This document shows positions 6,694 to 63,837 of a DNA stretch of 64,000 bases, in pieces. Position 1 is the stretch's first letter, and every line of letters starts with the position of its first letter. This stretch comes from Candidatus Omnitrophota bacterium (GTDB lineage: Bacteria; Omnitrophota; Gorgyraeia; Gygaellales; Profunditerraquicolaceae). The position numbers were made by a program, and so were the translations under genes. The stretch is taken from contig JBAZNG010000001.1 in the NCBI GenBank assembly GCA_041649385.1, forward strand, positions 3,427 to 67,426, given 5' to 3'. Under the pieces are notes generated by a model. That model ran no database searches and was not told the DNA's origin. It worked only from the letters and a program-made list of their open reading frames with translations.

Positions 6694-6715
6694 TTTTTCC
6701 CTTATTCTTAATCCT

Positions 6716-6772
6716 GGGTTTTAGGTGTTAGGTTCTCCCTACATTCTACCTACTACCTACTAACTACCCTAA
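6716..6772. repeat. CTAC-rich intergenic repeat, copy 1 (AGGTKYT heptads + CCCTACATTCTACCTACTACCTACTAACTACCC)
   Basis: Seen directly; fills the 82 bp rplX-rplE spacer inside the spc operon. Confidence 0.85.
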
Positions 6773-6775
6773 TAT

Positions 6776-7931: not shown

Positions 7932-8348
7932 TTATTTATGCACCCTGGTTACGAATTTTGTCCTTAAAGGCAGTTTGTATGCCGCCAGGCGGAAACATGC
8001 CTTGGCATACTCTTGCGGTACGCCGCCTAATTCAAAAAGTATGCGGCCCCTTTTAACTACCGCCACCCAATGATCGAGGTCGCCTTTTCCTTTACCCATA
8101 CGGACTTCTGCCGGTTTCTTGGTGATGGATTTATCCGGGAAAACCCTGATCCAGAGCTTGCCGCCTTTATGCAGCTGGCGGGCCAGGATCACACGCACAG
8201 CTTCAATCTGCGTATTTTTAAGCCAACCGTTATCCAGGGATTTAAGGGCAAATTCGCCAAAAGACACATGCGTGCCTGTCGTAGCTATTCCCCTTCTCTG
8301 GCCTTTCTGCAACTTACGGTATTTTACCCTCTTGGGCATTAAAACCAT
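7932..8348 (-). CDS. rplP: 50S ribosomal protein L16
   Basis: 138 aa L16/L10e family. Confidence 0.94.
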
Positions 8349-8349
8349 T

Positions 8350-9078
8350 TTAGTTCGCTCCTTGGTTACCGGCGCTTACTGGCGGTGACCTTCGCGCATC
8401 TCTTTTCTGCTGGTCTGTCGCCGGCTTTGTATCTTCCTGGGCAAGCTCTTTGCCGAGGATATCGCCTTTATAGATCCAAACTTTTACCCCAATCAAACCA
8501 TAAGTGGTGAGCGCTTCGGCAAAACCATAATCAATATCCGCGCGTAAAGTCTGTAAAGGCACCTTGCCCACTTTATAAGTTTCTGTGCGCGACATCTCCG
8601 CACCGTTAAGGCGGCCGGAACATTTAACGCGGATACCTTTTACCCCCGAGGTCACCGACTGCTCCATAGCCCTTTTTACGGCCCTGCGGAAAGCCACGCG
8701 TTTTTCCTGCTGCATGGCGATATTTTCTGCGACTAACTGCGCATCCCATGTCGGACGGTTGATCTCTTCTATGTCTATGGATATTTCATTTTTTACCAGG
8801 CTGTTCAAGTCCGCGCGCAGGCGTTCAATATCAGAACCATGCCTGCCGATGATAAGCCCCGGGCGGGCTGAAAAGATACGCACCCGGATCCGCTGCGCAA
8901 GCCTTTCAATGACAACCTTGGAGATCGCCGCCTGCTTGAATCTGGACTTGATGAATTTCCGGATCTTATAATCCTGCTGGATAAACAAAGGAAAATCCTT
9001 AGCCCCGGCGAACCAGCGGCTATGCCATTGTTTTATAAAACCGATCCTTAATATTAACGGGTTTACCTTATGTCCCAT
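8350..9078 (-). CDS. rpsC: 30S ribosomal protein S3 (C-terminal charged extension)
   Basis: 242 aa, KH domain + S3 C-terminal domain. Confidence 0.93.
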
Positions 9079-9184
9079 GAAGTTATTCTCCTTATCTACC
9101 TTGATAACACCCGCGCAATTCTCCGACGCAAGGCGTATACCGGCCCAATTCCATTAAGGGCGGGTACTTTATCAGCGCGTGGTG

Positions 9185-9514
9185 TTACTTTAAATCTAAC
9201 TCAATCTTTATATGCGCGGTGCGCTTTACAATTGAAGCCGCGCGCCCGAACGCAGCAGCTTTAAATCTTTTCCACATCGGGCCGGGGTTGCAAACGATCT
9301 TGGAGATGTATAGTTTATCGGCTCCAAAGCCTTTTATTTTAGCATTAGCGGTTGCGGATTTCAATATTTTTATCAAATATTCTTTAGGCCTTTTATTTAA
9401 ATGCAAAAGAATCGCCTGCGCCTCTTGGACATCTTTGCCGCGGATCAAGTCCATCACCGGCCGTACCTTGCTTGGTGAGATCCTTAAAAATTTACCTTCT
9501 GCCTTTGAAATCAT
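9185..9514 (-). CDS. rplV: 50S ribosomal protein L22
   Basis: 109 aa L22 family. Confidence 0.92.
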   Translation of the reverse strand: MISKAEGKFLRISPSKVRPVMDLIRGKDVQEAQAILLHLNKRPKEYLIKILKSATANAKIKGFGADKLYISKIVCNPGPMWKRFKAAAFGRAASIVKRTAHIKIELDLK

Positions 9515-9515
9515 T

Positions 9516-9803
9516 TTATGTTTTCTCCAACGCTTTTTTAGCTTTCACGCCGCCATGCTTACGGAAGATCCTGGAAAGAGCAAACTCTCCTAACTTATGG
9601 CCAACCATATTCTCGGTAACAAACACCGGGATATGCCTTTTTCCATCATGCACGGCAAAAGTCAAACCCACAAAATCCGGGATGATCGTCGAACGCCTGC
9701 TCCAGGTCTTGATCGCCTGGCGGTCACCGAGCTTTTTGTGTTTTTCTACTTTTTTTAAAAGACTTTCTTCAACATAAGGGCCTTTTTTTAATGAACGTGG
9801 CAT
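9516..9803 (-). CDS. rpsS: 30S ribosomal protein S19
   Basis: 95 aa S19. Confidence 0.94.
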
Positions 9804-9804: not shown

Positions 9805-10641
9805 TTATGGTTTCCTTCTCTTTACGATAAACTTGTTAGAATACTTTTTGCGGTTACGCGTGCGGTAACCTTTCGTAGGCACGCCCCATGGCGTTACCGG
9901 ATGCGGGTTACCCTGGCCTGATTTGCCTTCGCCACCGCCGTGTGGATGGTCAAAAGGATTCATTACAACGCCCCTTACTGATGGTTTGATCCCCAGCCAC
10001 CGGCTCTTGCCCGCTTTGCCCAGGATCAATGATTCATGCTCAATGTTACCGATCTGCCCGATCGTCGCGTGGCAATCCAGGCTGACCAATCTTACTTCAC
10101 CGGAAGGCAGTTTGATATGCGCAAAATCGCCTTCTTTTGCCATGATCTGAGCGCTTGTCCCTGCGCCGCGCACGATCTGTCCGCCTTTTCCTTGAGATAT
10201 CTCAATGTTATGCACTAATGTGCCTGAAGGTATGTTGCGTAATAAAAGGCAGTTTCCGATCTTGATCTCTGTTTCCTTCTGGTTTGAAGCAATTACTTCA
10301 TCTCCCACATTCATGCCTACGGGAGCGATAATATATCTCTTTCTCTTGTCCGCATATTCAATCAGCGCGATCCTGGCTGAACGGTTCGGGTCATATTCAA
10401 TCGCCAGAACCTGTGCCGGCAACTCAACAATATTTCTCTTAAAATCAACGATCCTGAGCATGCGTTTGTGGCCGCCGCCGATATGCCTGGTGGTGATCCG
10501 GCCATGCGCGTTCCTGCCGCCTGTCTTCTTTAAGGGCAGCAACAATGACCTTTCCGGCTTACCTTTGGTGATCTCTGAAAAATCCGGCCCGCTCATGTGG
10601 CGCCTTGAAGGTGTTGTTGGTTTGAATTTTATTATACCCAT
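9805..10641 (-). CDS. rplB: 50S ribosomal protein L2
   Basis: 278 aa, L2 N- and C-terminal domains. Confidence 0.95.
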
Positions 10642-10694
10642 TTGTTTTTTCCTTATTTGTTTTACCGCTCTTCTTTTTTCTGCTGCTGTTGCTT

Positions 10695-10746
10695 TTGTTT
10701 TTGTTTTTCCCTACATTCTACCTACTACCTACTATCTATTATCTAC
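10695..10746. repeat. CTAC-rich intergenic repeat, copy 2; its terminal CTA supplies the rplW TAG stop
   Basis: ccctacattctacctactacctactatctattatctac between rplW and rplB. Confidence 0.85.
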
Positions 10747-11021
10747 TTAATTTCTATCTTCTGTCCGTCTTTTAAAGTAACAACAGCTTTCTTCAGATCC
10801 TGTGTGCGGCCTAACTGATGGCGCACTCTTTTGAGTTTCCCGCTGCAGATAAAGGTATTCACGTCTTTTACTTTAACTTTATACTCCTGCTCTACGCTCT
10901 TTTTGATCTGGATCTTATTGGCGGCCTTATCCACCAGAAAAAGGTATTTGCCTTCCGGCAAATAAGCGGTTGATTTTTCAGTCTGTAACAAAGCTTTGAT
11001 GATCAATTTTGCGCTGCTCAT
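10743..11021 (-). CDS. rplW: 50S ribosomal protein L23
   Basis: 92 aa L23. Confidence 0.92.
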   Translation of the reverse strand: MSSAKLIIKALLQTEKSTAYLPEGKYLFLVDKAANKIQIKKSVEQEYKVKVKDVNTFICSGKLKRVRHQLGRTQDLKKAVVTLKDGQKIEIK

Positions 11022-35427: not shown

Positions 35428-36915
35428 TCATTTCCTAATTGCTTCCATTAACGCCTTAGCTTTATTCACTGTTTCCTGATACTCCCTGCTTCCTACGGAA
35501 TCCGCTACGATACCGGCGCCAGCCTGCACGTAAGCAAAACCATCCTTGATGACTATCGTGCGTATAGTGATACAAGTATCCATATTGTGGGAAAAACTGA
35601 AATACCCGACCGCGCCGGCGTACAAAGAACGCCTAAGGCTCTCTAAGGTATCAATGATCTCCATCGCCCTGACCTTGGGCGCGCCTGAAACAGTGCCGGC
35701 AGGAAAAGCGGCTTTTAACACATCATAGATATCAAACCTTTTTTTGTCAAGCACTCCTCTTACTTCACTGACCAGGTGCATTACATGAGAATACCTTTCC
35801 ACGCGCATAAAATCAGTAACGCTGACTTTTCCCGGCAGGCTTACGCGGCCTAAATCATTCCTGCCAAGATCAACCAGCATCAGGTGTTCAGCCTTTTCCT
35901 TTTTATCTTTCAATAGCTCTTTCTCAAGCTGCCTGTCTTTTACCTGGTCCGCTGAACGTGGCCGCGTGCCAGCAATAGGCCGCGTCTGAATGATCCCGTC
36001 CTCGCAGCGCACGAGCATCTCGGGGCTTGAGCCTACGACAGAAAAACCCTTCAGCTTCAAGAAATACATATAGGGGGAAGGATTGGACATCCTTAAAGAA
36101 CGGTAAATATCAAAAGCACCTTTCTTCGCCTTGACTTTGAAACGCTGCGAAAGGACTACCTGAATGATATCGCCTTTTTTTATGTACTCTTTGGCCGTGT
36201 TGACCATTTTTACGAACTCGCCCTTACGCATATTACTTTGTATGGTAAAACCTATTTTTGCGGCTGGCGGCTTGTTTTCCCCGATAGAGCCGTCAAAATC
36301 CTCCTGGATCAGGTCTATCTTCCTTAAAGCCTGACGGTAAAGTTTCTTCTTAACAGCCAGGCTACCTGCCCGCAAGTTTTGCGGCAGGATGACATTACTA
36401 ACTATCTTGATAGTATGCCTGAAATGGTCAAAAACCAGGATTGTATCCGTAAGGATGAACAAGGAATCACTAAGCTTAAGGTCATCCTTGTTCTTGTCCG
36501 GAAGTTTTTCAAAGAAACGCACCGTATCATAACCGATATAACCTACCAGGCCTCCGGAAAACCTCGGCAGGCCGCTGACCTCTACACTTTTAAACGGGCG
36601 CATCAGGTTCTTTATCTCATCCAAGGGATTAGTCGCCGTAACAAACCGCCGGGACTTTTTTTGATGCGCATTGACCACCTCTATATTCCTGCCCTTGCTC
36701 TTAAAAATAAACGAAGGGTTTGCCCCCAAGAAAGAATAGCGCGCGATCTTCTCCTTGCCCTCCACAGATTCAAGCAGAAAAGCGTAATCGCCCTTCTTGA
36801 TCTTTAAGAAAGCGGAAACCGGTGTCTCCAGGTCAGCGTTAATCTCCTTATACACCGGGATCACATTGCCCTGTTTGCTAAGTTTTAAGAATTCTTTGAA
36901 ATCTGGCCTGTACAT
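35428..36915 (-). CDS. chorismate-utilising enzyme, anthranilate/aminodeoxychorismate synthase component I family
   Basis: 495 aa chorismate-binding fold; no partner glutamine amidotransferase gene adjacent. Confidence 0.7.
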   Translation of the reverse strand: MYRPDFKEFLKLSKQGNVIPVYKEINADLETPVSAFLKIKKGDYAFLLESVEGKEKIARYSFLGANPSFIFKSKGRNIEVVNAHQKKSRRFVTATNPLDEIKNLMRPFKSVEVSGLPRFSGGLVGYIGYDTVRFFEKLPDKNKDDLKLSDSLFILTDTILVFDHFRHTIKIVSNVILPQNLRAGSLAVKKKLYRQALRKIDLIQEDFDGSIGENKPPAAKIGFTIQSNMRKGEFVKMVNTAKEYIKKGDIIQVVLSQRFKVKAKKGAFDIYRSLRMSNPSPYMYFLKLKGFSVVGSSPEMLVRCEDGIIQTRPIAGTRPRSADQVKDRQLEKELLKDKKEKAEHLMLVDLGRNDLGRVSLPGKVSVTDFMRVERYSHVMHLVSEVRGVLDKKRFDIYDVLKAAFPAGTVSGAPKVRAMEIIDTLESLRRSLYAGAVGYFSFSHNMDTCITIRTIVIKDGFAYVQAGAGIVADSVGSREYQETVNKAKALMEAIRK

Positions 36916-36930
36916 AAATTATTGTGCGAG

Positions 36931-37000
36931 TATGTAGAATATAGAAGGTAAAATGTAGGAAAAACCAAAACCTACATTCTATATACTACATTCTATCTAC
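36931..37000. repeat. CTAC-rich intergenic repeat, copy 9 (palindromic variant: aatgtagg-N11-cctacatt hairpin)
   Basis: Perfect 8 bp stem flanked by TAGAATGTAGG / CCTACATTCTA arms; between trpE-like and hisI. Confidence 0.8.
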
Positions 37001-37335
37001 TGCCTTTCTATTTTTCTATAAAAACACGACCTCTTGCCGGTATGGCAGGCTGCTCCCACCTGGCGGACTTTAATTAAAAGCGTATCCATATCACAATCAT
37101 AGGCAATCCATTTTACAAACTGGAAATGCCCGCTGGTCAAACCTTTCACCCAATATTCCTTACGCGAGCGCGACCAGAAACATGTCCTGCCTGATTTTAT
37201 CGTGCGCCTCAAAGATTCCTTGTTCATATACCCGAGCATCAATACCGCGTTATCCTTGTAATCCTGGATGATCGCCGGGATCAGGCCGTTTTTGTCAAAT
37301 TTCAGCGAACTTACTTTAAAATTGATCTTTTTCAT
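36997..37335 (-). CDS. hisI: phosphoribosyl-AMP cyclohydrolase
   Basis: 112 aa HisI. Confidence 0.88.
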
Positions 37336-39937: not shown

Positions 39938-39979
39938 AATTCAGTAGTTAATATTTCGTAGGTAGTGGTTAGGTTGCGC

Positions 39980-40588: not shown

Positions 40589-40601
40589 CTTTCTCCTCGC
40601 G

Positions 40602-40649
40602 TTTTCCCTATATTCTATCTACTATCTACTACCTACCCTATGCCTACGA
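40602..40649. repeat. CTAC-rich intergenic repeat, copy 3
   Basis: ttttccctatattctatctactatctactacctaccctatgcctacga between hisD stop and hisB RBS. Confidence 0.85.
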
Positions 40650-41876
40650 TTACACAAATCTCGCCTTCACCGAATCTAAATGTTTTTGCAGCCCCTCGAT
40701 CCCCGCTATCTTCTCCAGCGGCTCACGCATCTTCTCCAGGGCTTTCTTGGAATAACTTATGATATGGCTGCTCTTGACAAAATCAAACACGCTTAAGCCG
40801 CTAAAGAACCTCGCAGTGCCGGACGTAGGCAAAACATGGCTTGGCCCGGCAATATAATCTCCTACGGCTGTCGGGCTATACGGCCCTAAAAAGATAGCGC
40901 CGGCATTCTTAATGCCCTTAAGCAGGCGGTTAGGCGACTGCACTAAGATCTCTAAATGCTCCGGGGCGATCTTATTGCTGATCTCTACAGCCTGGTCCAG
41001 GTTTTTAGTCAATATAATATAGCCGTTCTCGCCATCTAATTGAGATTTTACTTCCCGGGCAAGCGATTTAGAATTAGTGATTAATATAGCCAGGCCCTTG
41101 GAATGTTCTGCCTGGGCGCGCAGGTCCGCAATAATGAATTTAGGGTTACTGAAACGGTTGGCAATAATCACCAGCTCCGTTGGCCCGGCGATCATATCTA
41201 TATCCACAGTGCCGAATACCTGGCGTTTTGCCTCATTTACATAAATATTCCCGGGCCCGACTATTTTGTCAACAGCCGGGATAGTCTTGGTGCCGTAAGC
41301 TAAAGCCGCGATCCCTTGCGCTCCCCCGGCGCGGTAAATTTCGTCTACCTTTAAAAGGTCAGCTACTACAAGTATATGCGGGTTAATGCATCCGGATTTA
41401 TCCGGCGGGCTGATCATCGCTATTTTCTTAACACCCGCTAGCTTTGCCGGCAAAACAGTCATATAAACAGTGGAGACTAACGGCGCCGTACCCGCTGGGA
41501 TATAGACTCCTACTCTGTCTAAAGGAGTGTAGTTCTCGCCCAAAAGCACGCCTTCCGGTGAGCTGATCCTCCAGGATTTGCGCAGCTGCTTACGGTAAAA
41601 TCTGTTGATGTTCTCAATTGCCACTTTCAGGCTGGAAACGAAATTGGCGCTTGTGTTCTGGTATGCGCCGCTTATCTCTATCTGGGAAACTTTAAGCTGC
41701 CTGGGGCTTAGCTTAACAGCGTCAAACTTGCGCGTGTATTTCAATAAAGCGTCATCGCCGAAAAGACGCACGTCTTCAATGATCTTTTTCACCTTGTCTT
41801 CTACGCGTGACTGCCGGTTTGCGCCGCGGCTGTATATCTTTTCCAACTGCTTACTCGTTGCCCTGATTATTTTCAT
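40650..41876 (-). CDS. hisD: histidinol dehydrogenase
   Basis: 408 aa HisD. Confidence 0.93.
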   Translation of the reverse strand: MKIIRATSKQLEKIYSRGANRQSRVEDKVKKIIEDVRLFGDDALLKYTRKFDAVKLSPRQLKVSQIEISGAYQNTSANFVSSLKVAIENINRFYRKQLRKSWRISSPEGVLLGENYTPLDRVGVYIPAGTAPLVSTVYMTVLPAKLAGVKKIAMISPPDKSGCINPHILVVADLLKVDEIYRAGGAQGIAALAYGTKTIPAVDKIVGPGNIYVNEAKRQVFGTVDIDMIAGPTELVIIANRFSNPKFIIADLRAQAEHSKGLAILITNSKSLAREVKSQLDGENGYIILTKNLDQAVEISNKIAPEHLEILVQSPNRLLKGIKNAGAIFLGPYSPTAVGDYIAGPSHVLPTSGTARFFSGLSVFDFVKSSHIISYSKKALEKMREPLEKIAGIEGLQKHLDSVKARFV

Positions 41877-46205: not shown

Positions 46206-46286
46206 GAAACAGTTTCCATCCCCAAGGGGAAACTGTTTTGATTCTAAAGGGGAAACTGTTTCCGCTTTAGATTGGAAACTGTTTCG
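46206..46286. promoter_or_regulatory. Array of four palindromic GGAAAC(W)GTTTCC operator-like sites spaced 23 bp apart
   Basis: gaaacagtttcc / ggggaaactgtttt / ggggaaactgtttcc / ggaaactgtttcg at centres 46211, 46234, 46257, 46280. Confidence 0.75.
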
Positions 46287-46320
46287 ATTTGAGATTTGGC
46301 GGGGAAAGCAGCTTACGAGA

Positions 46321-46349
46321 TTGACATTCGGGACAAAATATGGTAGATT
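46321..46349 (+). promoter_or_regulatory. sigma70 promoter TTGACA-17-TGgTAGATT (extended -10) giving a probable leaderless transcript for the GGDEF gene
   Basis: -10 ends 7 nt before the ATG at 46357; no Shine-Dalgarno. Confidence 0.6.
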
Positions 46350-46356
46350 TTACCCC

Positions 46357-47520
46357 ATGGATGAAACAGCCAGATTAAAACAGGAATTGGAGCGTTCAAA
46401 AACCGAGTTGGGGATACTCTATGAGATCTCTAATGCCATGCGCACAACGCTTAAGCTTGATGAGATCCTCTACATCATTCTGACAGGCGTGACCGCGCAT
46501 ACTGGCCTGGGATTTAACCGCGCGATGCTCTTTCTAGTCAATGAAAATGATAAGCTCGTGGAAGGCAAAATGGGCATTGGGCCGGAAAACGGCGAAGAAG
46601 CAAACTCCGCCTGGACCAAGATTGATGAAGAAAAAATGGACTTGGAGGACCTGATCAACGCCTTTAAAAACTCCAACAACTCCCTGGAATTAGGATTTAA
46701 CCGCCAGGTAAGGAATTTAAAGATTTCCCTGCTTGATAAAACGGATAACCCGATCAGCCTGGCTGTTTTAGAAGGCATGCCGCTGCATTTAACCTCGGAA
46801 ACCATGCAGAATTACTGCAACTCCCCGGTAATCAAAATGCTGCAAAGCAATGAAATGGTATTCATCCCCTTAAAAGCCAAAGACCGCGTAAACGGCGTGA
46901 TCATCGCGGACAATTTCATCACCAAAAAACCGATCACTAAAGACGACCTGCGTATGCTGATCATGCTGGCAAACCAGGCAGGCCTGGCAATTGAAAATTC
47001 GCAGCTATATGAAAAAACGGTTGACCGCGCCCACTCGGATTACCTGACCAACCTCTGGAACCATGGATATTTTCAATTCCTTTGGCAGACGGAAACTGAA
47101 AAAGCCCGCGCCACCCAGACTCCTTTAAGCCTAATTATGGTAGATATTGATGATTTCAAGGTTTACAACGATTCGCTTGGCCACCAGGCAGGAGACCGCA
47201 TCTTAAAGGAAATGGCTCAGATACTAAAGAATCAGTCGCGTAAAATTGATTTTGTCTGCCGTTATGGCGGAGAGGAATTTACGATCATCCTCCCGCAGAC
47301 CGATAAAAAAGAGGCTTTTATGATCGCTGAGCGCTTGAGGATGGATATAGAAAAACACACTTTTCTTAACGAAGAGATACTGCCGAACAAAAAACTTACC
47401 GTAAGCCTGGGGATAGCCACTTTCCCTGAGGATGGAACGCTCCCCGCCGAACTGATCACCTGCTCCGACAAACTGCTTTACCAGGCAAAAAGCAAAGGCA
47501 AGAATATAACCTGTTATTAA
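46357..47520 (+). CDS. GAF domain-containing diguanylate cyclase (GGEEF active site)
   Basis: GAF fold region then RYGGEEF GGDEF domain; ORF-track start at TTG 46321 rejected in favour of ATG 46357 (MDETARLKQ...). Confidence 0.85.
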   Translation: MDETARLKQELERSKTELGILYEISNAMRTTLKLDEILYIILTGVTAHTGLGFNRAMLFLVNENDKLVEGKMGIGPENGEEANSAWTKIDEEKMDLEDLINAFKNSNNSLELGFNRQVRNLKISLLDKTDNPISLAVLEGMPLHLTSETMQNYCNSPVIKMLQSNEMVFIPLKAKDRVNGVIIADNFITKKPITKDDLRMLIMLANQAGLAIENSQLYEKTVDRAHSDYLTNLWNHGYFQFLWQTETEKARATQTPLSLIMVDIDDFKVYNDSLGHQAGDRILKEMAQILKNQSRKIDFVCRYGGEEFTIILPQTDKKEAFMIAERLRMDIEKHTFLNEEILPNKKLTVSLGIATFPEDGTLPAELITCSDKLLYQAKSKGKNITCY

Positions 47521-47543: not shown

Positions 47544-50500
47544 CTAAACCCCCGCGGCAACCGGCTCTTTTTGCGCTTGGTTCTGTGAGAATTTTACCGA
47601 AACTATCTTAGAAACTCCTGACTGCTGCATAGTGATGCCATACATGACATTGGCGTTGGCAATCGTCTTTTTATTATGCGTGATCACGATAAACTGCGAT
47701 GTCCTGGAGAACTCCTGCAGGATGCGCGAGAACCTGTCTACATTGGCTTCATCAAGAGCAGCGTCAATCTCATCAAGTATGCAGAATGGCGAAGGCTTAA
47801 CCTTAAAAATAGCGAAGATCAGCGCGATCGCCGACATGCTCTTTTCTCCTCCGGACAATAACAAAACATTCTGCAGTTTCTTTCCCGGAGGCCGGCAGAT
47901 GATCTCAATACCGGATTCTAAAGGATCCGACTCATCGGTCAAGAATACCTGCGCGTCTCCGCCGTTAAAAAGCAGGCGGAAGTAATTACGGAACTCTACT
48001 TTCACCTTCTCAAATGTATCCATGAACATCTGTTTTGTCGTCCGGTTGATCTTTAAGATCGCCTGGTGCAGCGATTCTTTGGCGCTATTTAAATCTGTCT
48101 GCTGCTGAATGAGAAAATCGTAGCGCTGCTTAAGCTCATCATACTCCTCTATGGCGACTAAATTCACCGAGCCGTAGGAATCCAGCTTCTCCTTAAGCTT
48201 TGTTATCTCCCCATTCAAAACCTGCCTGTCTTGCTGCTGCACATTGAGAATCTGCGTATCCAGGTCGACTTTATAGCTGTTTTGCATCCGCTCCTTGATA
48301 TTGGTGTAGCGGTAATCCACATCCTTATCCTGCATCTGGAGATCATGCAGCTGGGATTTAATCAGGTCCATCTCTTTACGGCCAGCCTCTATTTTTCTTG
48401 CTGCTTCCACGGTAGAGCTGGATATCTGTTCATATTCGGCGTCCATCACGGTTAATTTTTCTTTATTCTCAAGGATATCCTTGGTTGCCTGTTCCTTATT
48501 CTTCTGGCATTCTACGATCTCGGCTTTCAGTGTTTCCTGAAGCGCATTTCCGTCAGTAATCTGCCGCTGAATATGCTCAAGCGCTTCCTCATCCTGCGTA
48601 CAAGTCTCCTGAATAATCTTTAAAGTCGCCGCGTCTGAACTTAAACGCCTGGTCAAGGCCTCGATCTCCGTCTTAGTCTGCGTGATCACAACCAAAACAT
48701 CTTCTCTTAACTTGCTTTTTAAAGAAATCACGTCCTCATCCTGCAGGATCTGGTCTTCGATCTGCCTCTGCTTGCTGCTCAAGGCAGTAAGCCTGGATTG
48801 AGCGTCAACAAGGTTCTGCTCCAATACAGAGATCTCGCGGGATACATCGCCTAACTCCATGACAATGACATCCTCTTCTTCCTTGATCTTATTGAATTGC
48901 TCGGATATCGCCGCGAAACTTGACTCCTTGTTCGCCAGAGAGATCTCCTGGTTGCGCAGGTCCTGGCCGAGGCTTTCGGCCATCTTGGACAATTCAGATA
49001 TACAGCTTTCCCTCAATACCTTCTTGTTCCTCAATTCACCCAGGCGCTCCTCCAGATCCTTGATCTTCTCGTCGATCCTGGTTGTGTCCAACTCTATGGG
49101 CTTGGCTTCCCCGCTTAATTTAAACCCCTCGCCGCTTCTTTCAGTATCACCGAATGAAGAACTGACTTTGACCACCAGGCCGGAAACAGTATCCCGGGGC
49201 ATTTTATCAAGGTAGATCACGGCATTCAGCGCCGGGCCTATATCATCATATTTATTTTTCAGCTTCTCCAGGAACTCTTTATGAGAAGCCAAAGTAAGCT
49301 TTTCATTCTCCAGCGCCGAGATCTCCGTATTGATCGTATTTAAATTTATGCCTTCCTGGTCAAGATTTTCCTTTACCTTGGCGATCCTGGAATTTAACTC
49401 ATCAAGTGCCAGCTTAACCGTTTCCAGCTCAAGGCTGACCTTCTTGAAATTCTCCTCGGTGATAGCCTTCTCTTCAAAAACCTTGGCTTTCTCGATCGCC
49501 AGGCGCTTCTTACGCGCCAGGTAAACCTGGTGCTTGGAATTGATATCTCCGATCTCGTTCTTTGCCGCGGCGACTTGAGAAGCCAAATCCAGGATAGTCT
49601 TTTTGCCCTCAACGATCGCCTCAAGCAGGCCTTTGATCGTGACGCTAATCGCGTTGATCTCTTCTTCTTTCTGCGCCAGAGTGATATTCTTCTCCTCGCT
49701 AACCTGCTGGATGCTATCGTGTTCGGCTTTTACTTTTTCCAGTTTTTCCTGATCCTGCAATAACTTGGCTTTAGCCTGTTCGATTTGGCTGTTCAAGATC
49801 TCCCGGCTGGCGTTGATCTCGGCGATCCTGTCCTCGTCAAACTTGATATGCTCATCATTGCGTACCAGGCTGTTTTCCAGGTTCAACACCTGGCCCTTTA
49901 AAGCCATCATCTTCTCTTCAAATTCTTTAAGCTCGGACTGGCGGTTAGAGATCTTCTCTTCCTGCTGCCGGATAGTTTCCAAAAGGGAATTCTGGCTCTG
50001 TTCAAGGCCTGAAATAGAGTTGACCAGTTCCTCTTTTTGTTTAAGCAAATCTGTCTTTTCCAGGAGTGCGGAATCAATCTCTTTGGTTTTCAGCTCTTCA
50101 AAGACTTCTTTGTACCTGCGCGCCTTGTTCGCCTGGCGCTCTAAACTTCCGATCTGGCGTTTGACTTCAACGACAATGTCATTTACGCGCAAAAGATTCT
50201 GCTGCGTTTCTTCCAATTTACGCATTGTTTCCCTCTTTTGCGCTTTATACCTTGTAATACCGCTTGCTTCGTCAAAAACTAACCTACGGTCATCGGGCCG
50301 CGAGCTTAACACAAGGTCGATCTTGCCCTGCGCAACTATAGAGTAACTCTCTGCACCGATACCCGTGCCAAGCAACAGATCCAGTATATCCTTAAGCCGC
50401 ACAGTCGACTTATTGATCATGTATTCGCTTTCACCTGAACGAAATATCCTGCGGGTGATCACCAACTCCGGATGGTCAATATTAAAAAACCGGTTCTGGT

Positions 50501-50756
50501 TATCAAAAGAAAGGCTCACTTCTGCCATGCTCAACGGCTCTTTATTGTCGGCGCCGTTAAAAATGACATCCAGCATCTCTGAACCGCGCAAAGACTTTGC
50601 GGATTGCTCGCCAAGCACCCAGCGTATGGAATCAAAAATATTGCTTTTACCGCAGCCGTTAGGGCCGACTACGGCGGTAATCCCCGGCTCAAACTCAAGG
50701 ACTGTTTTTTCGCAGAAAGACTTAAAACCTACAAGCTCAAGTTTTTTAAAATACAT
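47544..50756 (-). CDS. smc: chromosome segregation protein SMC
   Basis: 1070 aa, Walker A GPNGCGKSN, long coiled coils, hinge, signature LSGGEKS and Walker B. Confidence 0.95.
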   Translation of the reverse strand: MYFKKLELVGFKSFCEKTVLEFEPGITAVVGPNGCGKSNIFDSIRWVLGEQSAKSLRGSEMLDVIFNGADNKEPLSMAEVSLSFDNQNRFFNIDHPELVITRRIFRSGESEYMINKSTVRLKDILDLLLGTGIGAESYSIVAQGKIDLVLSSRPDDRRLVFDEASGITRYKAQKRETMRKLEETQQNLLRVNDIVVEVKRQIGSLERQANKARRYKEVFEELKTKEIDSALLEKTDLLKQKEELVNSISGLEQSQNSLLETIRQQEEKISNRQSELKEFEEKMMALKGQVLNLENSLVRNDEHIKFDEDRIAEINASREILNSQIEQAKAKLLQDQEKLEKVKAEHDSIQQVSEEKNITLAQKEEEINAISVTIKGLLEAIVEGKKTILDLASQVAAAKNEIGDINSKHQVYLARKKRLAIEKAKVFEEKAITEENFKKVSLELETVKLALDELNSRIAKVKENLDQEGINLNTINTEISALENEKLTLASHKEFLEKLKNKYDDIGPALNAVIYLDKMPRDTVSGLVVKVSSSFGDTERSGEGFKLSGEAKPIELDTTRIDEKIKDLEERLGELRNKKVLRESCISELSKMAESLGQDLRNQEISLANKESSFAAISEQFNKIKEEEDVIVMELGDVSREISVLEQNLVDAQSRLTALSSKQRQIEDQILQDEDVISLKSKLREDVLVVITQTKTEIEALTRRLSSDAATLKIIQETCTQDEEALEHIQRQITDGNALQETLKAEIVECQKNKEQATKDILENKEKLTVMDAEYEQISSSTVEAARKIEAGRKEMDLIKSQLHDLQMQDKDVDYRYTNIKERMQNSYKVDLDTQILNVQQQDRQVLNGEITKLKEKLDSYGSVNLVAIEEYDELKQRYDFLIQQQTDLNSAKESLHQAILKINRTTKQMFMDTFEKVKVEFRNYFRLLFNGGDAQVFLTDESDPLESGIEIICRPPGKKLQNVLLLSGGEKSMSAIALIFAIFKVKPSPFCILDEIDAALDEANVDRFSRILQEFSRTSQFIVITHNKKTIANANVMYGITMQQSGVSKIVSVKFSQNQAQKEPVAAGV

Positions 50757-50814
50757 TCATCTTCCTCCAATTCTCTGCATCTATTATATTTTAACTTGCT
50801 AAATTTATCTTTTG

Positions 50815-50863
50815 CTTTTCCCTACATTCTACCTGCCATCTACTACCTACCCCCTAATCTGTA
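50815..50863. repeat. CTAC-rich intergenic repeat, copy 4
   Basis: ttttccctacattctacctgccatctactacctaccccctaatctgtacta between HTH gene and smc. Confidence 0.85.
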
Positions 50864-51049
50864 CTAATGAGCTTGGTTCTCCAGCCACGCATCAATTTTA
50901 TCTTTTTTAAAACGCCACTGCCCGACGAGCTTTAGCGCCGGTATCTTATTATGTTTAAGCCAGTCATAGATCGTCCTACGGGTCACTTTCAGGTAATCCG
51001 CCAGATCCTCTATTGTCATCAAGTTTGCATTGACCATTATTCTCTCCAA
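50864..51049 (-). CDS. excisionase-family helix-turn-helix DNA-binding protein (61 aa, TTG start)
   Basis: MTIEDLADYLKVTRRTIYDWLKHNKIPALKLVGQWRF matches the excisionase/MerR-superfamily HTH_17 pattern. Confidence 0.75.
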   Translation of the reverse strand: MERIMVNANLMTIEDLADYLKVTRRTIYDWLKHNKIPALKLVGQWRFKKDKIDAWLENQAH

Positions 51050-51168
51050 ATATTATGTTTGCATTATAAATAGTAAAATAATATTTGTCAAGAGAATATT
51101 TACATTCTTTAACATATGTTATCAAATTAGTATGATAATAGACACATTGATACATAAACATACATAAA

Positions 51169-51300
51169 ACCCAGACCGTTTCTATATAACTATCTGGGAT
51201 ATATGTAGATATAGCAGAACTGTCCCCGAATGATACAATGGGGACAGTTCTATCATAACTTAAGTCATACCAATATGATAAATAGAAACGGTCTAGATTG
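51169..51300. repeat. Nested palindromic (MITE-like) element: outer IR AGACCGTTTCTAT / ATAGAAACGGTCT enclosing 12 bp stem hairpin agaactgtcccc-N12-ggggacagttct
   Basis: Seen directly; right half duplicated at 51718-51777. Confidence 0.7.
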
Positions 51301-51303
51301 GCG

Positions 51304-51714
51304 TTACAGAGGAGTAAGAATACCGCCGGTTGAGGCTGTATAAGTAACATTACCGGTTGTGCCCAGGGTTACCGGTGAAGCGACAAATGTGTAGCCGGTT
51401 ATATCCGCGGTACAACTGTAGTTATAACCCTGTATCTGCGTCTGGCTGCCGGAAGCATCAGCGCAATAGTTGGGGGCGGAGTTGATAAAACTCTGCAGCT
51501 CAAAAACAGTGACCGGATAATGCCCTAAAGAAACTGAAGCGGTTTCCGCCGCATTGGCCAGCGAACGAATATTGCCTTTTGCTGCTGCTTCATTAGCAGC
51601 CCTCTTCATAGCGATCAGGTTTGGAATAGCAATAGCGGCAAGCAGGGAAATAATTCCCACAACAATCAATATCTCCACTAAAGTAAAGCCTTTGCTTTGA
51701 GCAAGCTTAGCCAT
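51304..51714 (-). CDS. type IV pilin / pseudopilin with class III signal peptide (G|FTLVEIL)
   Basis: MAKLAQSKGFTLVEILIVVGIISLLAAIAIPNL N-terminal methylation motif, Thr/Gly-rich C-terminal beta domain. Confidence 0.85.
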   Translation of the reverse strand: MAKLAQSKGFTLVEILIVVGIISLLAAIAIPNLIAMKRAANEAAAKGNIRSLANAAETASVSLGHYPVTVFELQSFINSAPNYCADASGSQTQIQGYNYSCTADITGYTFVASPVTLGTTGNVTYTASTGGILTPL

Positions 51715-51717
51715 AAA

Positions 51718-51777
51718 GGGGACACTTCTATTCTAACTTATTCCATACCAATGAGATAGATAGAAACGGTCTAGATT
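51718..51777. repeat. 60 bp direct repeat of the right half of the 51169-51300 element (about 87% identical), immediately upstream of pilin ATG
   Basis: ggggacacttctattctaacttattccataccaatgagatagatagaaacggtctagatt vs 51241-51300. Confidence 0.75.
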
Positions 51778-52978
51778 ATTTTCTGAGCGCCTCTTTGAAG
51801 GCTTTGGTTAAGGCAGGGACAACCTCAAAAAGGTCTCCGACTATCCCGTATGTAGCCACTTTAAATATAGGTGCCTCGGGATCTTTATTGATCGCCACAA
51901 TGATCTTGGAAGACTGCATGCCCACAAGATGCTGGATCTGGCCGGAAATACCACAGGCAAAATATATCTTCGGCCCGACTGTGCGTCCGGTTTGGCCTAC
52001 CTGGTGCGAATATGGCATCCATCCTGAATCAACCGCTGCGCGGCTTGAACCCACAGCTGCTCCTAAAACATGCGCCAGCTCCTCAAGTATCTTGAAATTT
52101 TCATGATTGGCCATACCGCGGCCTCCGGAAACAATGATATCCGCTTCAGAAAGGTTCACCGTAGATTCGATCTCTTCAACAATATCCAGTAATTTAGTAC
52201 GGGAAAAATAAAGTGATTTGTCAAAACTTTCACGGATTATTTTACCTTTGCGTTTTTTATCAGCTGGCAAAGGCGTAAAAACTTTATGCCTGACAGTAGC
52301 CATCTGCGGGCGGTAATTCGGCGAGATTATCGTCGCCATAATATTGCCGCCAAAAGCCGGGCGCGTCTGCAGTAATATTTTCTTTGTTTCATCAATATCT
52401 AAACCCGTGCAATCCGCGGTAAGCCCAGCCTTGATATTAATGGCCACCCGTGAGATCAAAGACCTACCTATGTTAGTTGCCCCGCATAAAAATATCTCCG
52501 GTTTATATTTCTTGATCAGTTCAACAAGAATATTAGTGTAAGGCTCATCCTGGAAATTCGCCAGCTCCGGCGCTTCAACCAGGTAAATATTATCCGCGCC
52601 GCAGAAAGTTAGTTCATCAAGCTGGTCCTCAAGTTTATCCCCGATCAGAACGCCGCTTACCTGGCAATTAAGTTTCTTGGCTAATTCCTGCGCCTTGCCG
52701 AGCAACTCATAAGAAACTGACTGCACCCTGCCGTTCTTCTGCTCAATGAACACCCAGATGCCTTTATGATCTTTGATATCCGGCAACTCACACTTAGCAG
52801 GAGTTTTCTCTAAAATGATCGCCTTGAATTTACAGGCATCCTTGCAGGCTCCGCAAAGCGTGCATTTATTCAGGTCTATCATCGCCTTTTTGTCCATCAT
52901 GCGAATGGCATCAAACGGACAGGCCTTAAAACATAATGTACAACCGGTGCACTTCTCAATAATGATCTGTATAGACAT
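51776..52978 (-). CDS. etfA: electron transfer flavoprotein alpha subunit with N-terminal 2x[4Fe-4S] ferredoxin domain
   Basis: CTGCTLCFKACP and CTLCGACKDAC clusters followed by EtfA FAD-binding domain. Confidence 0.88.
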   Translation of the reverse strand: MSIQIIIEKCTGCTLCFKACPFDAIRMMDKKAMIDLNKCTLCGACKDACKFKAIILEKTPAKCELPDIKDHKGIWVFIEQKNGRVQSVSYELLGKAQELAKKLNCQVSGVLIGDKLEDQLDELTFCGADNIYLVEAPELANFQDEPYTNILVELIKKYKPEIFLCGATNIGRSLISRVAINIKAGLTADCTGLDIDETKKILLQTRPAFGGNIMATIISPNYRPQMATVRHKVFTPLPADKKRKGKIIRESFDKSLYFSRTKLLDIVEEIESTVNLSEADIIVSGGRGMANHENFKILEELAHVLGAAVGSSRAAVDSGWMPYSHQVGQTGRTVGPKIYFACGISGQIQHLVGMQSSKIIVAINKDPEAPIFKVATYGIVGDLFEVVPALTKAFKEALRK

Positions 52979-52980
52979 AT

Positions 52981-53763: not shown

Positions 53764-53767
53764 TCTT

Positions 53768-53856
53768 AATAGCCCTTTTAGGTTCTGGGTTCTAGGTTAT
53801 AGGTTCTGGTTTTTCCTACATTCTACCTACTATCTACTACCTACCCTCTATTAACT
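53768..53856. repeat. CTAC-rich intergenic repeat, copy 5 (longest AGGTTCT heptad run)
   Basis: ttaggttctgggttctaggttataggttctggtttttcctacattctacctactatctactacctaccctctattaactacttag. Confidence 0.85.
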
Positions 53857-55006
53857 ACTTAGCCATCTCCTTGATCATTGCTAACGCGATAATGCTGCGC
53901 TGCACCTGGTTTGTGCCTTCATAGATCTGGGTGATCTTGGCGTCACGCACATATTTCTCAATCGGATAATCCTTCATATAACCGTATCCGCCGAATAACT
54001 GTAGAGCGTCTACGGAAACCTTCATCGCCACATCCGAAGCAAACATCTTGGCCATCGCTGATTCCTTAGCCACGTCCTTTTTGCCAGCATCCACCATCCT
54101 AGCGGTTGAATATACCAGGCCGCGGGCAGCTTCAACTTCCGTAGCCATATCCGCGATCATCCACTGGATACCCTGAAAGCTTGAGATGGGCTTACCGAAC
54201 TGCACTCTCTGGCGCACATATTTAACAGCCAGCTCCAACGCGCCCTGCGCAATACCTAATGCCTGCGCGGCAACTCCCGGGCGGCTCATATCAAATGTCC
54301 TCATTGTGACGATAAAACCCATACCTTCTTTAGCTAACAGGTTCTGCGCGGGTACCTTGCAATCTGTGAAAATAAGTTCCCTTGTGCTGGAAGCGCGGAT
54401 ACCGAACTTATCCTCTTTCTTGCCGAAAGTAAACCCGGGCGTACCCTTTTCCACGATGAACGCCGAAGCGCCACGGGCGCCTTTAGTCTTATCCGTCATG
54501 GCGATAACAACATAAGTTTCCGCGTCTCCGCCATTGGTAATGAAATGCTTTAAACCATTTAAAATATAATGGTCGCCTTCTTTTTTGGCTGTAGTCTTAA
54601 TCGCCGAAGCATCAGACCCTGCTTCCGGCTCCGTAATGGCAAACGCAGCTACTTTCTTGCCGCTAGCCAAGTCAGGCAGGTATTTCTTTTTTTGCTCATC
54701 ATTACCAAACAAAACGATCGGGAATGTGCCCAGGGCGCTGGCTGCGTAGCAAACCGCGATACCGCCGCAGGCGCGGGAGAACTCTTCCGTAGCTAAACAT
54801 AAATTCATAACATTGGTGCCTAAACCGCCGTACTCTTCCGGGATGAATAAACCGAACATATCGGATTCCGCCATTACTTTAAGCACATCCCAGGGATACT
54901 CTTCGCTGATATCGTATTTGGCAGCAGCCGGACGGATCTTCTCCTCGGCGATCTTATGGGCTAACTCCTTGATCATCTTTTGCTCATCAGTTAACAAATA
55001 ATCCAT
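53855..55006 (-). CDS. acyl-CoA dehydrogenase (butyryl-CoA dehydrogenase-like)
   Basis: 383 aa ACAD fold, catalytic Glu near C-terminus; adjacent to etfBA. Confidence 0.88.
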   Translation of the reverse strand: MDYLLTDEQKMIKELAHKIAEEKIRPAAAKYDISEEYPWDVLKVMAESDMFGLFIPEEYGGLGTNVMNLCLATEEFSRACGGIAVCYAASALGTFPIVLFGNDEQKKKYLPDLASGKKVAAFAITEPEAGSDASAIKTTAKKEGDHYILNGLKHFITNGGDAETYVVIAMTDKTKGARGASAFIVEKGTPGFTFGKKEDKFGIRASSTRELIFTDCKVPAQNLLAKEGMGFIVTMRTFDMSRPGVAAQALGIAQGALELAVKYVRQRVQFGKPISSFQGIQWMIADMATEVEAARGLVYSTARMVDAGKKDVAKESAMAKMFASDVAMKVSVDALQLFGGYGYMKDYPIEKYVRDAKITQIYEGTNQVQRSIIALAMIKEMAK

Positions 55007-55059
55007 TTTTTCCTCCTTAACTGCCGTAAATCTGGCAGGCTGATTAATTAATTCTTTGG

Positions 55060-55087
55060 ATTATAACATAAAAAGGTTATTTTACAA
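55060..55087 (-). promoter_or_regulatory. Candidate promoter for acd-etfBA (TTGTAA-16-TATAAT)
   Basis: Minus strand cTTGTAAaataacctttttatgtTATAATcc, 50 nt upstream of acd ATG. Confidence 0.5.
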
Positions 55088-55580: not shown

Positions 55581-55583
55581 ATT

Positions 55584-55633
55584 TTTTGCCTACCTGCTAT
55601 CTACTAACTACTACCTGCTCTCTATTAAGTATT
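55584..55633. repeat. CTAC-rich intergenic repeat, copy 6 (diverged)
   Basis: ttttttgcctacctgctatctactaactactacctgctctctattaagtatta between glgC and GNAT. Confidence 0.75.
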
Positions 55634-56855
55634 ATTTAATTGATGTGCCTTTAGCCACTACCACAATTCCTGAATCGCTGACAAAAAAACGCTTTTTATC
55701 TTCATCAAGGTCATATCCAATGACCACGCCCTGGGGGATACTTACATCCTTATCAATGATCGCCCGTTTTATCTTAGCGTGCCTGCCGACATTTACGCCT
55801 TCCATAAGTATGGAATCATAAACTTCCGAGAAGCTGTTAATGCGCACATTCGGCGAAAGGATACTGTGCTGCACGCGTCCGCCGGAAACAACGCAACCTT
55901 CGGAAACTATAGAATCCAAAACAAGGCCTACGCGGCCTTTTTCCTGCTCACCGGAGTGCACAGTCTTTACCGGCGGGTATTGCTCCTGGTAAGTCCTTAC
56001 CGGCCAATCCTGGTCATAAAGGTTGAAATCGGGGTTGGCCTGGATCAAGCCCATATTCGCGTCATAATAAGCGTCGATTGTCCCGATATCCCGCCAATAC
56101 GCCTCTTTATTATTCTCATCGCGGAAATTATAAACAACGACTTTCATATTCTTCTTAAGCATCTGCGGGATGATATCCTTGCCGAAATCATGCGAGGATT
56201 TGGCGTTCTTTGAGTCTTCCGTAAGTTCCTTTTCAAGTATGGAATTGTTAAAAACATAAATACCCATAGAGCCGTATATCTTATCGGGCTTATCGATGAT
56301 CGTCTTTGGATTGGCCGGTTTCTCCTGGAAACCGACGATTTTTCCGGCGGTATCGACCTCCACCACGCCTAAATGCTTGGATTTATTTTTATTTATCTCC
56401 ACAACCCCCACGGTCAGGTCGGCGTTCTGATCCCTATGGTAATCGATCATAGAGTAGTAATTCATTTTGTAAATATGGTCGCCTGCCAGTATAAGCACCT
56501 CATCAGGCCTGTCCATTTCAAGCGTATAAAGGTTCTGATAAAGCGCGTTGGCTGTGCCCAGGTACCAGGAATCACCCACTCTTTGCTGCGCAGGAAGCAT
56601 CTCAATAAACTGGCCTAACTCTGAAGGCAAAAAGTTCCAGCCTAAACGGATATGCCTCTGCAAAGACGCGGATTTATACTGGCTAAGCAGGTAGATCTTG
56701 CGCAGGCCGGAGTTAATGCAATTACTTAAAGTAAAATCAATGATCCGGTAGATGCCGCCAAAAGGCACAGCCGGTTTTGTACGGTCTTTGGTCAAAGGCA
56801 GGAGCCTCTCGCCCTTGCCGCCTACCATAATAAAAGTCAGGACTTTGCGCATCAT
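55632..56855 (-). CDS. glgC: glucose-1-phosphate adenylyltransferase
   Basis: 407 aa, GGKGERL nucleotide-binding motif, left-handed beta helix C-domain. Confidence 0.9.
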   Translation of the reverse strand: MMRKVLTFIMVGGKGERLLPLTKDRTKPAVPFGGIYRIIDFTLSNCINSGLRKIYLLSQYKSASLQRHIRLGWNFLPSELGQFIEMLPAQQRVGDSWYLGTANALYQNLYTLEMDRPDEVLILAGDHIYKMNYYSMIDYHRDQNADLTVGVVEINKNKSKHLGVVEVDTAGKIVGFQEKPANPKTIIDKPDKIYGSMGIYVFNNSILEKELTEDSKNAKSSHDFGKDIIPQMLKKNMKVVVYNFRDENNKEAYWRDIGTIDAYYDANMGLIQANPDFNLYDQDWPVRTYQEQYPPVKTVHSGEQEKGRVGLVLDSIVSEGCVVSGGRVQHSILSPNVRINSFSEVYDSILMEGVNVGRHAKIKRAIIDKDVSIPQGVVIGYDLDEDKKRFFVSDSGIVVVAKGTSIK

Positions 56856-57487: not shown

Positions 57488-57495
57488 TAGAAAAT

Positions 57496-58644: not shown

Positions 58645-58669
58645 AATTCCTTATTTCAAGATTACTTCC

Positions 58670-58800
58670 CGCTTCGGCGCGCCTTGCGGTCGCAATGACG
58701 GTTATTCGTCATTGCGAGGAGTCCGCCAACGCTGCAATGGCGGACGACGAAGCGACCAAGGGCGAAATGCCCACGTAAGTGCCGAGCCTATCTAGGCGAG
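58670..58800 (-). ncRNA. GC-rich multi-hairpin 5' leader (candidate riboswitch / cis-regulatory RNA) upstream of the FBT transporter
   Basis: 11 bp stem tcgcaatgacg/cgtcattgcga, 8 bp stem gtccgcca/tggcggac, cgcUUCGgcg tetraloop, alternative outer helix ggtcgc/gcgacc. Confidence 0.4.
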
Positions 58801-61589: not shown

Positions 61590-61677
61590 TTTTGGTTTTC
61601 CCTGCATTCTACCTACTATCTACTACCTGCCCTATTTTGTTTTTTCTTTCCTACCTGCTTTCTGCTACCTACTGCTC
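61590..61677. repeat. CTAC-rich intergenic repeat, copy 7 (duplicated CTACCTGC module)
   Basis: ttttggttttccctgcattctacctactatctactacctgccctattttgttttttctttcctacctgctttctgctacctactgctc. Confidence 0.85.
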
Positions 61678-62765: not shown

Positions 62766-62838
62766 TTTAGGTTTTAGGTGTTTGGTTCCAGGTTTTCCCT
62801 ACCTACTACATACTACATTCTACCTACCCGCTATTATG
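62766..62838. repeat. CTAC-rich intergenic repeat, copy 8
   Basis: tttaggttttaggtgtttggttccaggttttccctacctactacatactacattctacctacccgctattatgtc. Confidence 0.85.
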
Positions 62839-63836: not shown

Positions 63837-63837
63837 C

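Follow-up and report, generated by a model that had tools for sequence, protein, structure and literature searches.

A short heptad repeat was found in the spacers between genes of a Candidatus Omnitrophota bacterium and its relatives. The 38 nucleotides (nt) considered here lie between the ribosomal protein genes rplW and rplB, at 10709-10746 of the window (the whole stretch analysed, 64,000 nt of contig JBAZNG010000001.1 in assembly GCA_041649385.1). Reading of the reverse complement gives GTAGATAATAGATAGTAGGTAGTAGGTAGAATGTAGGG on the minus (coding) strand, which confirms the sequence reported in an earlier interpretation of this DNA (the sequence-only reading). The interpretation favoured here, which as a whole has about an even chance of being correct, is that the 38 nt belong to a strand-polar interspersed repeat, specific to one clade of Omnitrophota-like bacteria, and form one of its copies. 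The repeat would be a polar, C-free, unstructured and operon-compatible intercistronic element, located on the sense strand directly 3' of genes in the transcribed spacers of co-oriented genes, that passively backs up termination, spaces cistrons and sometimes provides a Shine-Dalgarno sequence. Literature searches with the sequence strings and for Omnitrophota repeats returned no earlier description, and the repeat is apparently undescribed so far.

The repeat is 35-50 nt long and consists of 2-6 heptads of the form YAGNTAG capped by GAATGYAGGRAAA. The family consensus begins with (A)TAGGG- or TCAG-, continues with (YAGNTAG)2-6 and ends with GAATGYAGGRAAAAC, and a period of 7 is the commonest period over all loci. 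Positions A2, A6 and G7 of the unit are almost invariant; position 1 is T, C or A and position 4 is G, A or T, with C in just 0-3%, a unit logo that is partly imposed by the detection pattern. The TAG triplets within arrays are often changed to CAG, TAT or AAT, not to other stops. The rplW/rplB copy (10703..10747, minus strand; nhmmer E=7.7e-10) contains the heptads TAGATAA-TAGATAG-TAGGTAG-TAGGTAG followed by the cap AATGTAGGGAAAAAC. It is located in the 101-nt spacer that separates rplW (10743..11021) from rplB (9805..10641) in an S10-type ribosomal protein operon. An A-rich, C-poor tail of CAAAAR-type repeats (10642..10702, minus strand) follows the copy and reaches the Shine-Dalgarno sequence and start of rplB; TTGTTT recurs with period 6 at 10689-10708 in this tail region. 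The predicted minimum free energy (MFE) of the full spacer, taken as 109 nt, is -0.8 kcal/mol.

The matches in the window far exceed expectation. An 18-mer search with up to three mismatches gave 14 matches (0.04 expected), and the two-heptad pattern YAGNTAGYAGNTAG with at most one mismatch gave 21 matches (0.61 expected), 20 of which are on the minus strand. Tandem repeats of period 7 were reported by TRF at 6746-6767, 10718-10747, 40615-40636, 53823-53844, 61609-61628 and 62799-62827. The window contains about 11 copies in total, comprising nine forward arrays, one inverted pair and one reversed fragment. All of them lie between genes, which were named by Pfam, at ribosomal protein, his/trp, SMC, acd/etfB, glgC-like/GNAT and galT-like/gap/pgk junctions, and about half of the window spacers of at least 25 nt hold a copy.

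Related copies were sought by an exact 21-mer scan of GTDB representative genomes and a 22-mer scan of metagenomes, followed by a profile search. The GTDB scan recovered a Candidatus Omnitrophota metagenome-assembled genome (MAG), designated L002 in the numbering of loci used here, in which a copy separates a TAG stop from the Shine-Dalgarno sequence of an acpP-like gene. The metagenome scan recovered 67 contigs. The profile search yielded 89 copies at E<1e-3, and 87 copies at 43 distinct sites were left after L003 and L004 had been dropped as duplicates of the window. Several contigs are syntenic with the window, with amino-acid identity of 60-96%. The 43 sites are all intergenic except for one reversed copy within an open reading frame (ORF). 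The upstream gene is on the strand of the element in 71 of 79 copies, and 36-37 of the 43 sites lie directly 3' of a co-oriented ORF of at least 60 codons. Four sites follow RNA genes, and the rest are the reverse partners of hairpins or contig ends. The gap from the upstream stop is typically -20 to +15 nt; the distance to the following start ranges over 1-290 nt (median 34 nt, counted from the terminal AGG). The copies beside RNA genes are in forward orientation between tRNA-Lys and tRNA-Leu (L014), after tRNA-Arg (L026) and after tmRNA (L041 and L068); a copy between a duplicated tRNA-Thr 3' end and tRNA-Tyr (L045) is also forward.

The repeat supplies stop codons. The rplW ORF (10743..11021, minus strand) ends in the TAG at 10743-10745, which is the first triplet of the heptad array and in its 7-nt register, and the ORF of the acyl-CoA dehydrogenase gene acd (53855..55006, minus strand) ends in the TAG at 53855-53857, in the heptad register of its own array. 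The TAA stops of hisD (40650-40652) and of the glgC-like gene (55632-55634) adjoin the element, 6-9 nt 5' of the arrays. These four placements agree with the sequence-only reading. Among element-adjacent genes, TAG is the stop in 28 of 52 (54%), compared with 78 of 416 background genes (19%; odds ratio 5, p=1.7e-7), and several ORFs extend 1-6 codons into the array; as had been proposed, copies do supply the upstream gene with its stop, or else stand behind that stop as a reserve. The proposal that every frame terminates within the element is also sound. In 83 of 87 arrays (95%) no frame stays open beyond 40 nt, and the last one closes at a median of 14 nt. Element-free spacers reach 13%, shuffles of matched composition 38% and the reverse complement 5%, so that closure is strongly orientation-specific. 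Triple-frame closure arises because the 7-nt unit bears TAG and 7 is not a multiple of three, and therefore no separate selection is required. Reassignment of TAG was considered and rejected, as the long conserved genes tuf, rpoB, rpoC and fusA are intact when read with the standard code and orthologues share the TAG at which they end.

Filled and empty versions of the same junctions were compared among relatives. The rplW/rplB junction is filled in the window, L062 and L036, the rplX/rplE junction in the window, L010 and L036, and the hisD/hisB junction in the window, L016, L021 and L043. The rpsS/rplV junction is empty in the window (TAAAATG) and holds a copy in L036 and L040, and rpsG/fusA holds a copy in L036 only, the window being empty there. 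At hisB/hisH the stop and start overlap as TAATG in L043 and L021, and a reversed copy is present in the window and L016. Since the element-less junctions overlap or abut in relatives (TAATG, TAAAATG), insertion physically separates the cistrons. The number of heptads varies between orthologues from 2 to 6, and tails are swapped even between close relatives (window and L010 at rplX/rplE). The identity at 4-fold sites between the window and L016, L021, L043, L031 and L036 is 0.39-0.45, so that synonymous sites are saturated. Retained orthologous cores are about 75-90% identical by hand count on aligned sequences, and the site-specific variants GGGTAGGCAG and ATGCAGGNAAGG are shared at hisD/hisB. 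Preservation of the cores despite saturated synonymous sites indicates active maintenance of the sequence and, by implication, a conserved partner or constraint that is sequence-specific.

The cores have a C fraction of 1-4%, whereas element-free spacers have an ordinary composition with 19% C. The cores have an MFE between 0 and -3.1 kcal/mol, and neither single copies nor the spacers around them are more stably folded than shuffled sequences (z -1.65 to +1.55). No significant pairing was obtained between the heptads and the AACCTA tails that follow them. An Rfam search of the whole window gave just two tRNAs at the gathering threshold, and no hit overlapped any copy at E<=1 in 50700-63000. 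The only copies that fold are forward and reverse pairs, such as that in the window at 36915-37015 (dG -29.8 kcal/mol, z -5.6). Further hairpin pairs are located between acpP and fabF in L001 and 5' of hisF in L043 and L021; unrelated hairpins occupy the site 5' of hisF in the window and L016. In 20 of 65 copies (about 30%) the terminal AGG(R)A occupies the Shine-Dalgarno position, 3-12 nt 5' of the next start. Elsewhere a canonical AAGGAG comes after the tail.

The element resembles several known classes of repeats and lacks defining features of each, namely the host and unit of the short tandemly repeated repetitive (STRR) sequences, the through-ORF of the mycobacterial interspersed repetitive units (MIRU) and the palindromic unit of the repetitive extragenic palindromes (REP). 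Of these, STRR and MIRU sequences are the nearest analogues, and the likeness to REP is looser. REP sequences and the bacterial interspersed mosaic elements (BIME) built from them are imperfect palindromes of about 35-40 nt that are abundant in transcribed intergenic regions near stops, form hairpins as inverted pairs and are linked to REP-associated tyrosine transposases (RAYT). The element shares with them its size, its placement near stops and the hairpins formed by inverted pairs; unlike REP, its unit is non-palindromic, C-free and unstructured. A RAYT-type gene was not found in about 0.5 Mb of fragments. The unit YAGNTAG is presumably not among the STRR units. In cyanobacteria, STRR sequences occur in spacers such as that between hupS and hupL, the same site can be occupied in several genera, and roles in transcript stability or translational coupling have been proposed (PMC2670836). 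The element is likewise a tandem array of 7-nt units that is dispersed in intergenic and intercistronic spacers and recurs at the same site in several relatives. It differs from STRR sequences in its Omnitrophota-like host and its unit, in its non-periodic ends (5' ATAGGG or TCAG; 3' GAATGYAGGRAAA), in being almost always co-oriented with genes and abutting or containing their stop, and in the absence of a hairpin from single copies, and it is thus an analogue and not a member. MIRU sequences are inserted at gene junctions at which both genes stay expressed (PMC12548453), and they too are short operon-internal repeats co-oriented with the flanking genes. A MIRU contains a small ORF that overlaps the stop and start of its neighbours and preserves coupling, whereas the element is shorter, is built of heptads, closes all frames (median 14 nt) and has no conserved ORF.

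In the favoured interpretation, insertion of the element would replace termination-reinitiation coupling by independent initiation on an unstructured leader, and transcription would not be stopped. Because coupling requires overlaps or very short spacers (PMC10666635), filled junctions would have been turned from coupled to independent. The polarity would reflect selection against the reverse orientation, which is open in all frames and C-rich and would thereby resemble a Rho loading (rut) site; a strand-specific insertion process would provide an alternative or an added cause. Taken more broadly, such selection, a binding function at the transcript level and an insertion bias linked to replication are three conceivable origins of the polarity. 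The constancy of the sequence would be due to recognition by a conserved sequence-specific partner, which may be an enzyme of propagation or a binding protein of the host.

Several observations weigh against the intercistronic spacer interpretation. The polarity of the element is confounded with the direction of replication, as 68 of 71 window ORFs of at least 70 amino acids are on the minus strand over 64 kb. No contig was found with single copies in both orientations beside oppositely oriented genes, and transcription and replication polarity are for both reasons inseparable. All four tRNA and tmRNA sites are forward too, which purely translation-based selection does not predict (p ~0.06). 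The conservation of middle heptads over saturated divergence exceeds the needs of a passive spacer and points to a specific binding partner. Neither propagation machinery nor a target-site duplication was identified, and comparison of filled with empty sites gave just a possible AAAT at rpsS/rplV. Because the loci were ascertained with a cap-containing pattern, statistics on the cap rest on smaller unbiased sets, comprising the 8 window arrays and 21 arrays from loci outside the search seed. It is also by inference that transcripts are taken to read through the element, that coupling is taken to be affected and that the terminal AGG is taken to act as a Shine-Dalgarno sequence.

A tentative alternative, which we consider unlikely, is that the heptads act in cis, as RNA or single-stranded DNA, and provide a platform on which an oligomeric sequence-specific binding protein reads xAG triplets at a 7-nt period. 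Such a platform would mark the 3' ends of genes genome-wide for processing, protection or the control of termination or translation, and frame closure would be a side effect. This is consistent with the almost invariant A2, A6 and G7 and the tolerant positions 1 and 4, although the unit logo is partly set by the detection pattern. The persistence of the consensus in lineages with saturated synonymous sites, the retention of middle heptads at orthologous sites, the tight polar placement after protein, tRNA and tmRNA genes alike and the unstructured nature of the element also argue for it. There is a precedent in HutP, which recognizes three XAG motifs 7 nt apart with contacts to A and G, and in TRAP, which binds (G/U)AG repeats (PMC2425495). 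The element has in common with the binding sites of these proteins at least three xAG triplets, the 7-nt period of the HutP model RNA (PMC2425495), an unstructured RNA and invariant A and G. It differs from them in lacking an adjacent terminator at single copies and a two-site layout with a 12-17 nt linker, and in being present genome-wide and not in one leader; the resemblance of the periodic xAG to RNA reading by HutP and TRAP is a lead by analogy. A candidate protein was not identified, none having been searched for, and the variation among orthologues from 2 to 6 heptads, the free gain and loss of sites and the swapping of tails between close relatives (window and L010) argue against a binding platform. 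A more specific form of the idea, by analogy with these proteins, has a low probability: the array may be a punctuation mark of the transcript, an xAG platform 3' of protein, tRNA and tmRNA genes that is read in 7-nt register by an oligomeric RNA-binding protein and controls intercistronic processing, 3'-end protection or cistron-specific translation across the Omnitrophota clade. This would explain how the consensus survived saturated divergence.

It is also improbable that the repeat is purely selfish or neutral, with polarity resulting from replication-linked, strand-specific insertion (as in IS200/IS605 and REP-RAYT) together with slippage, and with placement at gene ends reflecting where insertions are tolerated in a compact genome. 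The presence/absence polymorphism, the variable number of heptads, the tandem triplication of the element after the tmRNA gene of L068 and the many contigs that end within copies are all consistent with such an origin. Forward and reverse copies combine into hairpins like the mosaics of BIME, and the extreme strand bias leaves gene polarity and replication polarity inseparable. However, no transposase, terminal inverted repeats or target-site duplication were seen, and cores and site-specific variants are retained though 4-fold sites are saturated. The copy in L034 follows a local plus-strand gene cluster in a contig that is mostly minus-strand, a further point against this origin. Viral contigs gave no matches, which also counts against a selfish element and by which a phage origin was rejected.

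The sequence-only reading had interpreted the element as an evolved translation reset, in which AGGU and a minimal AUG-UAG ORF capture and release ribosomes and tune reinitiation. This model is now very unlikely. The string AGGTAGAATGTAG is present exactly at 5 window copies (0.01 expected) and is the commonest cap in the family, and the stop donation and frame closure on which the model also drew were both confirmed. Most copies were said to contain AGGUAGAAUGUAG, which is an overstatement, as the exact string occurs in 5 of about 11 window copies; the others have AATATAG (40607) or AATGCAG (61601) or lack the motif (55589, 61651 and 39943). ATGTAG was found in 4 of the 8 window arrays and in just 5 of the 21 non-seed arrays, and about 20% of the seed copies have ATGCAG. 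Orthologous copies that have been retained contain AATATAG (hisD/hisB of the window at 40607; rplW/rplB of L036) or ATGCAG (L016, L021 and L043), so that conservation of ATG-TAG among the copies of relatives was not found. The proposed Shine-Dalgarno motif AGGU is located 3 nt from the AUG, too near for good Shine-Dalgarno spacing, which argues against efficient initiation. About 30% of the caps occupy the Shine-Dalgarno position of the true downstream start. Copies are also present between tRNA genes and after tmRNA, where there is no ribosome to reset. Translation does initiate at start-stop sites in E. coli (bioRxiv 10.1101/520783), and the commonest cap resembles such minimal ORFs in having AUG followed by UAG with a purine-rich motif upstream. 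It differs from them in the variability of the motif among copies and orthologous sites, the 3-nt distance of the Shine-Dalgarno-like motif and the occurrence of copies in untranslated tRNA spacers. In the favoured interpretation the ATG-TAG is incidental, a property of the cap variant that happens to be commonest. The general idea of decoupling is retained as an effect of insertion, which physically separates cistrons, and abandoned with respect to the start-stop mechanism; adaptation is not established from sequence alone.

The repeat is least of all a transcription signal, either a promoter with the cap TAGAAT as its -10 box or a terminator, for which the probability is very small. TAGAAT matches TATAAT at 5 of 6 positions and copies lie 5' of genes, but the consensus has no -35 box or TG extension at the right spacing, the hexamer 17 nt 5' of TAGAAT being TAGGGT (2 of 6 positions matching TTGACA). 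A promoter scan of 50000-64000 listed no site on the cap TAGAAT, and its sole match in a copy was weak (9/12, 55603-55576). Many copies lack TAGAAT, in about 30% of copies the cap is close to the start codon (5-12 nt), and in convergent pairs the copies go with the end of the upstream gene. Forward and reverse pairs followed by T8 at convergent gene ends (L044/L059) resemble intrinsic terminators, whereas single copies have no GC-rich hairpin or U-tract and occur inside ribosomal protein operons. The G-tracts are presumably too short and irregular for a G-quadruplex, and we take a 40-nt intergenic element to be unlike the FtsK-orienting polar sequences (KOPS-like GGGNAGGG).

The other copies of the window are described here in order. 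The rplX/rplE copy (6731..6775, minus strand) is followed by an AACCTAA-type heptad tail at ~6700-6730. Between hisI and trpE an inverted pair (36929..37001) forms a long hairpin from a forward copy at 36971-37001 (minus strand), which contains the hisI stop TAG, and a reverse partner at 36929-36966 (plus strand). The degenerate reversed copy between hisB and hisH is located at 39943..39972 (plus strand). The hisD/hisB copy (40600..40643, minus strand) has the cap AATATAG without ATG, and its end merges into the hisB Shine-Dalgarno sequence GAGGAG. A copy 5' of the SMC gene (50814..50858, minus strand) is preceded by a small ORF with a TAG stop. The acd/etfB copy (53807..53857, minus strand) is followed by an AACCTAR heptad tail at ~53770-53806. 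The copy between the glgC-like gene and the GNAT gene (55584..55634, minus strand) has no GAATGTAG cap; its terminal AGG is 8 nt 5' of the next ATG, and its heptad register extends back to the TAA stop at 55632-55634. Two arrays lie between gap and pgk (61594..61672, minus strand), a degenerate one at 61651-61672 and one at 61594-61638 with the cap AATGCAG and a GCTGARR heptad tail after it; orthologous copies are present in L070, L024 and L031. The copy between the galT-like gene and gap (62791..62835, minus strand) has a rearranged unit order and an AACC-type tail.

Between the element and the following start codon, the spacer itself consists of further short repeats, namely (AACCTAR)n, (GCTGARR)n and (CAAAAR)n. 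Such tails are found in the window at 6700-6730, 53770-53806, 62765-62790 and 61545-61590 and at many other loci (e.g., L010, L012, L047 and L051). The AACCTAR and GCTGARR units have a stop codon in every 7-nt unit, and GCTGARR arrays are distributed 5 to 1 between the sense and antisense orientations. A perfect palindrome, CCTGCCTGCC(G)GGCAGGCAGG, is nested in some copies of the element as GGTAG-CCTGCCTGCCGGCAGGCAGG-TAG (L019 2739-2803, L021 3143-3205, L023 5980-6041 and L031 ~1896-1960) and stands alone in the recA-side spacer of L016. This palindrome could represent either another small element or a hairpin that arose from CAGG heptads.

Several loci outside the window have unusual contexts. 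The GTDB scan also recovered L001 (JAMOTL010000004.1, 2650-2950), labelled as a Nautiliaceae MAG, in which a degenerate forward copy is paired with a reverse copy between acpP and fabF. As L001 was binned to a phylum other than that of L002, it may reflect mis-binning or horizontal transfer. In L045 (1597-1852), a second copy of the ~29 nt that end tRNA-Thr (GGGTCGGGGGTTCGATTCCTCTCGCCGGCT) is located 153 nt downstream, separated from the first by a GC-rich structured insert, and the TAG-heptad element comes after this second copy; the duplication looks like an integration scar or a small insertion at the 3' end of a tRNA gene. The reversed copy within an ORF is located in L068 at 8798-8828 (plus-strand coordinates), in ORF 8204..9592, where it is translated as ...FFFFFLPTIYCLLSTVLCGC... 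and provides an example of the reverse orientation being open in all frames. This translated segment looks like the hydrophobic core and lipobox of a signal peptide. The ORF appears to join a Maf-like N-terminal part and a peptidase-like C-terminal part.

Three further regions of the window contain repeats. At 46206-46296, three 23-nt tandem repeats with the palindrome GAAACAGTTTC occupy the divergent region 5' of the sole clear plus-strand gene (GAF-GGDEF, 46321-47520), and they are probably operator sites. At 51168-51299 and 51715-51777, 60-nt inverted and direct repeats (GGGGACAGTTCTATC...AAACGGTCTAGATT) flank small ORFs, one of which (51304-51714) has a prepilin-type N-terminal methylation motif; the segment may be duplicated or invertible. 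At 58645-58883, a 239-nt GC-rich spacer contains a perfect terminator-like palindrome (58831-58858), which is conserved in L070. The same spacer holds CTCGCAATGACG...CGTCATTGCGA hairpin repeats, which recur elsewhere, including spacers of L031 and L024, and belong to a second, unrelated repeat family.

The Omnitrophota are uncultivated, and the organisation of gene expression in these bacteria is almost unknown. In the clade examined here, unstructured spacers of 45-135 nt replace overlapping stop-start junctions, including those in the S10 and spc ribosomal protein operons. The relatives offer filled and empty versions of one junction, so that translational coupling can be tested directly. 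The strict polarity and the conservation over saturated divergence imply a conserved sequence-specific partner that could be found. For genome analysis, the repeat breaks metagenome assemblies and influences gene calling through the C-terminal tails and TAG stops that it encodes; it is also a handy marker of the clade.

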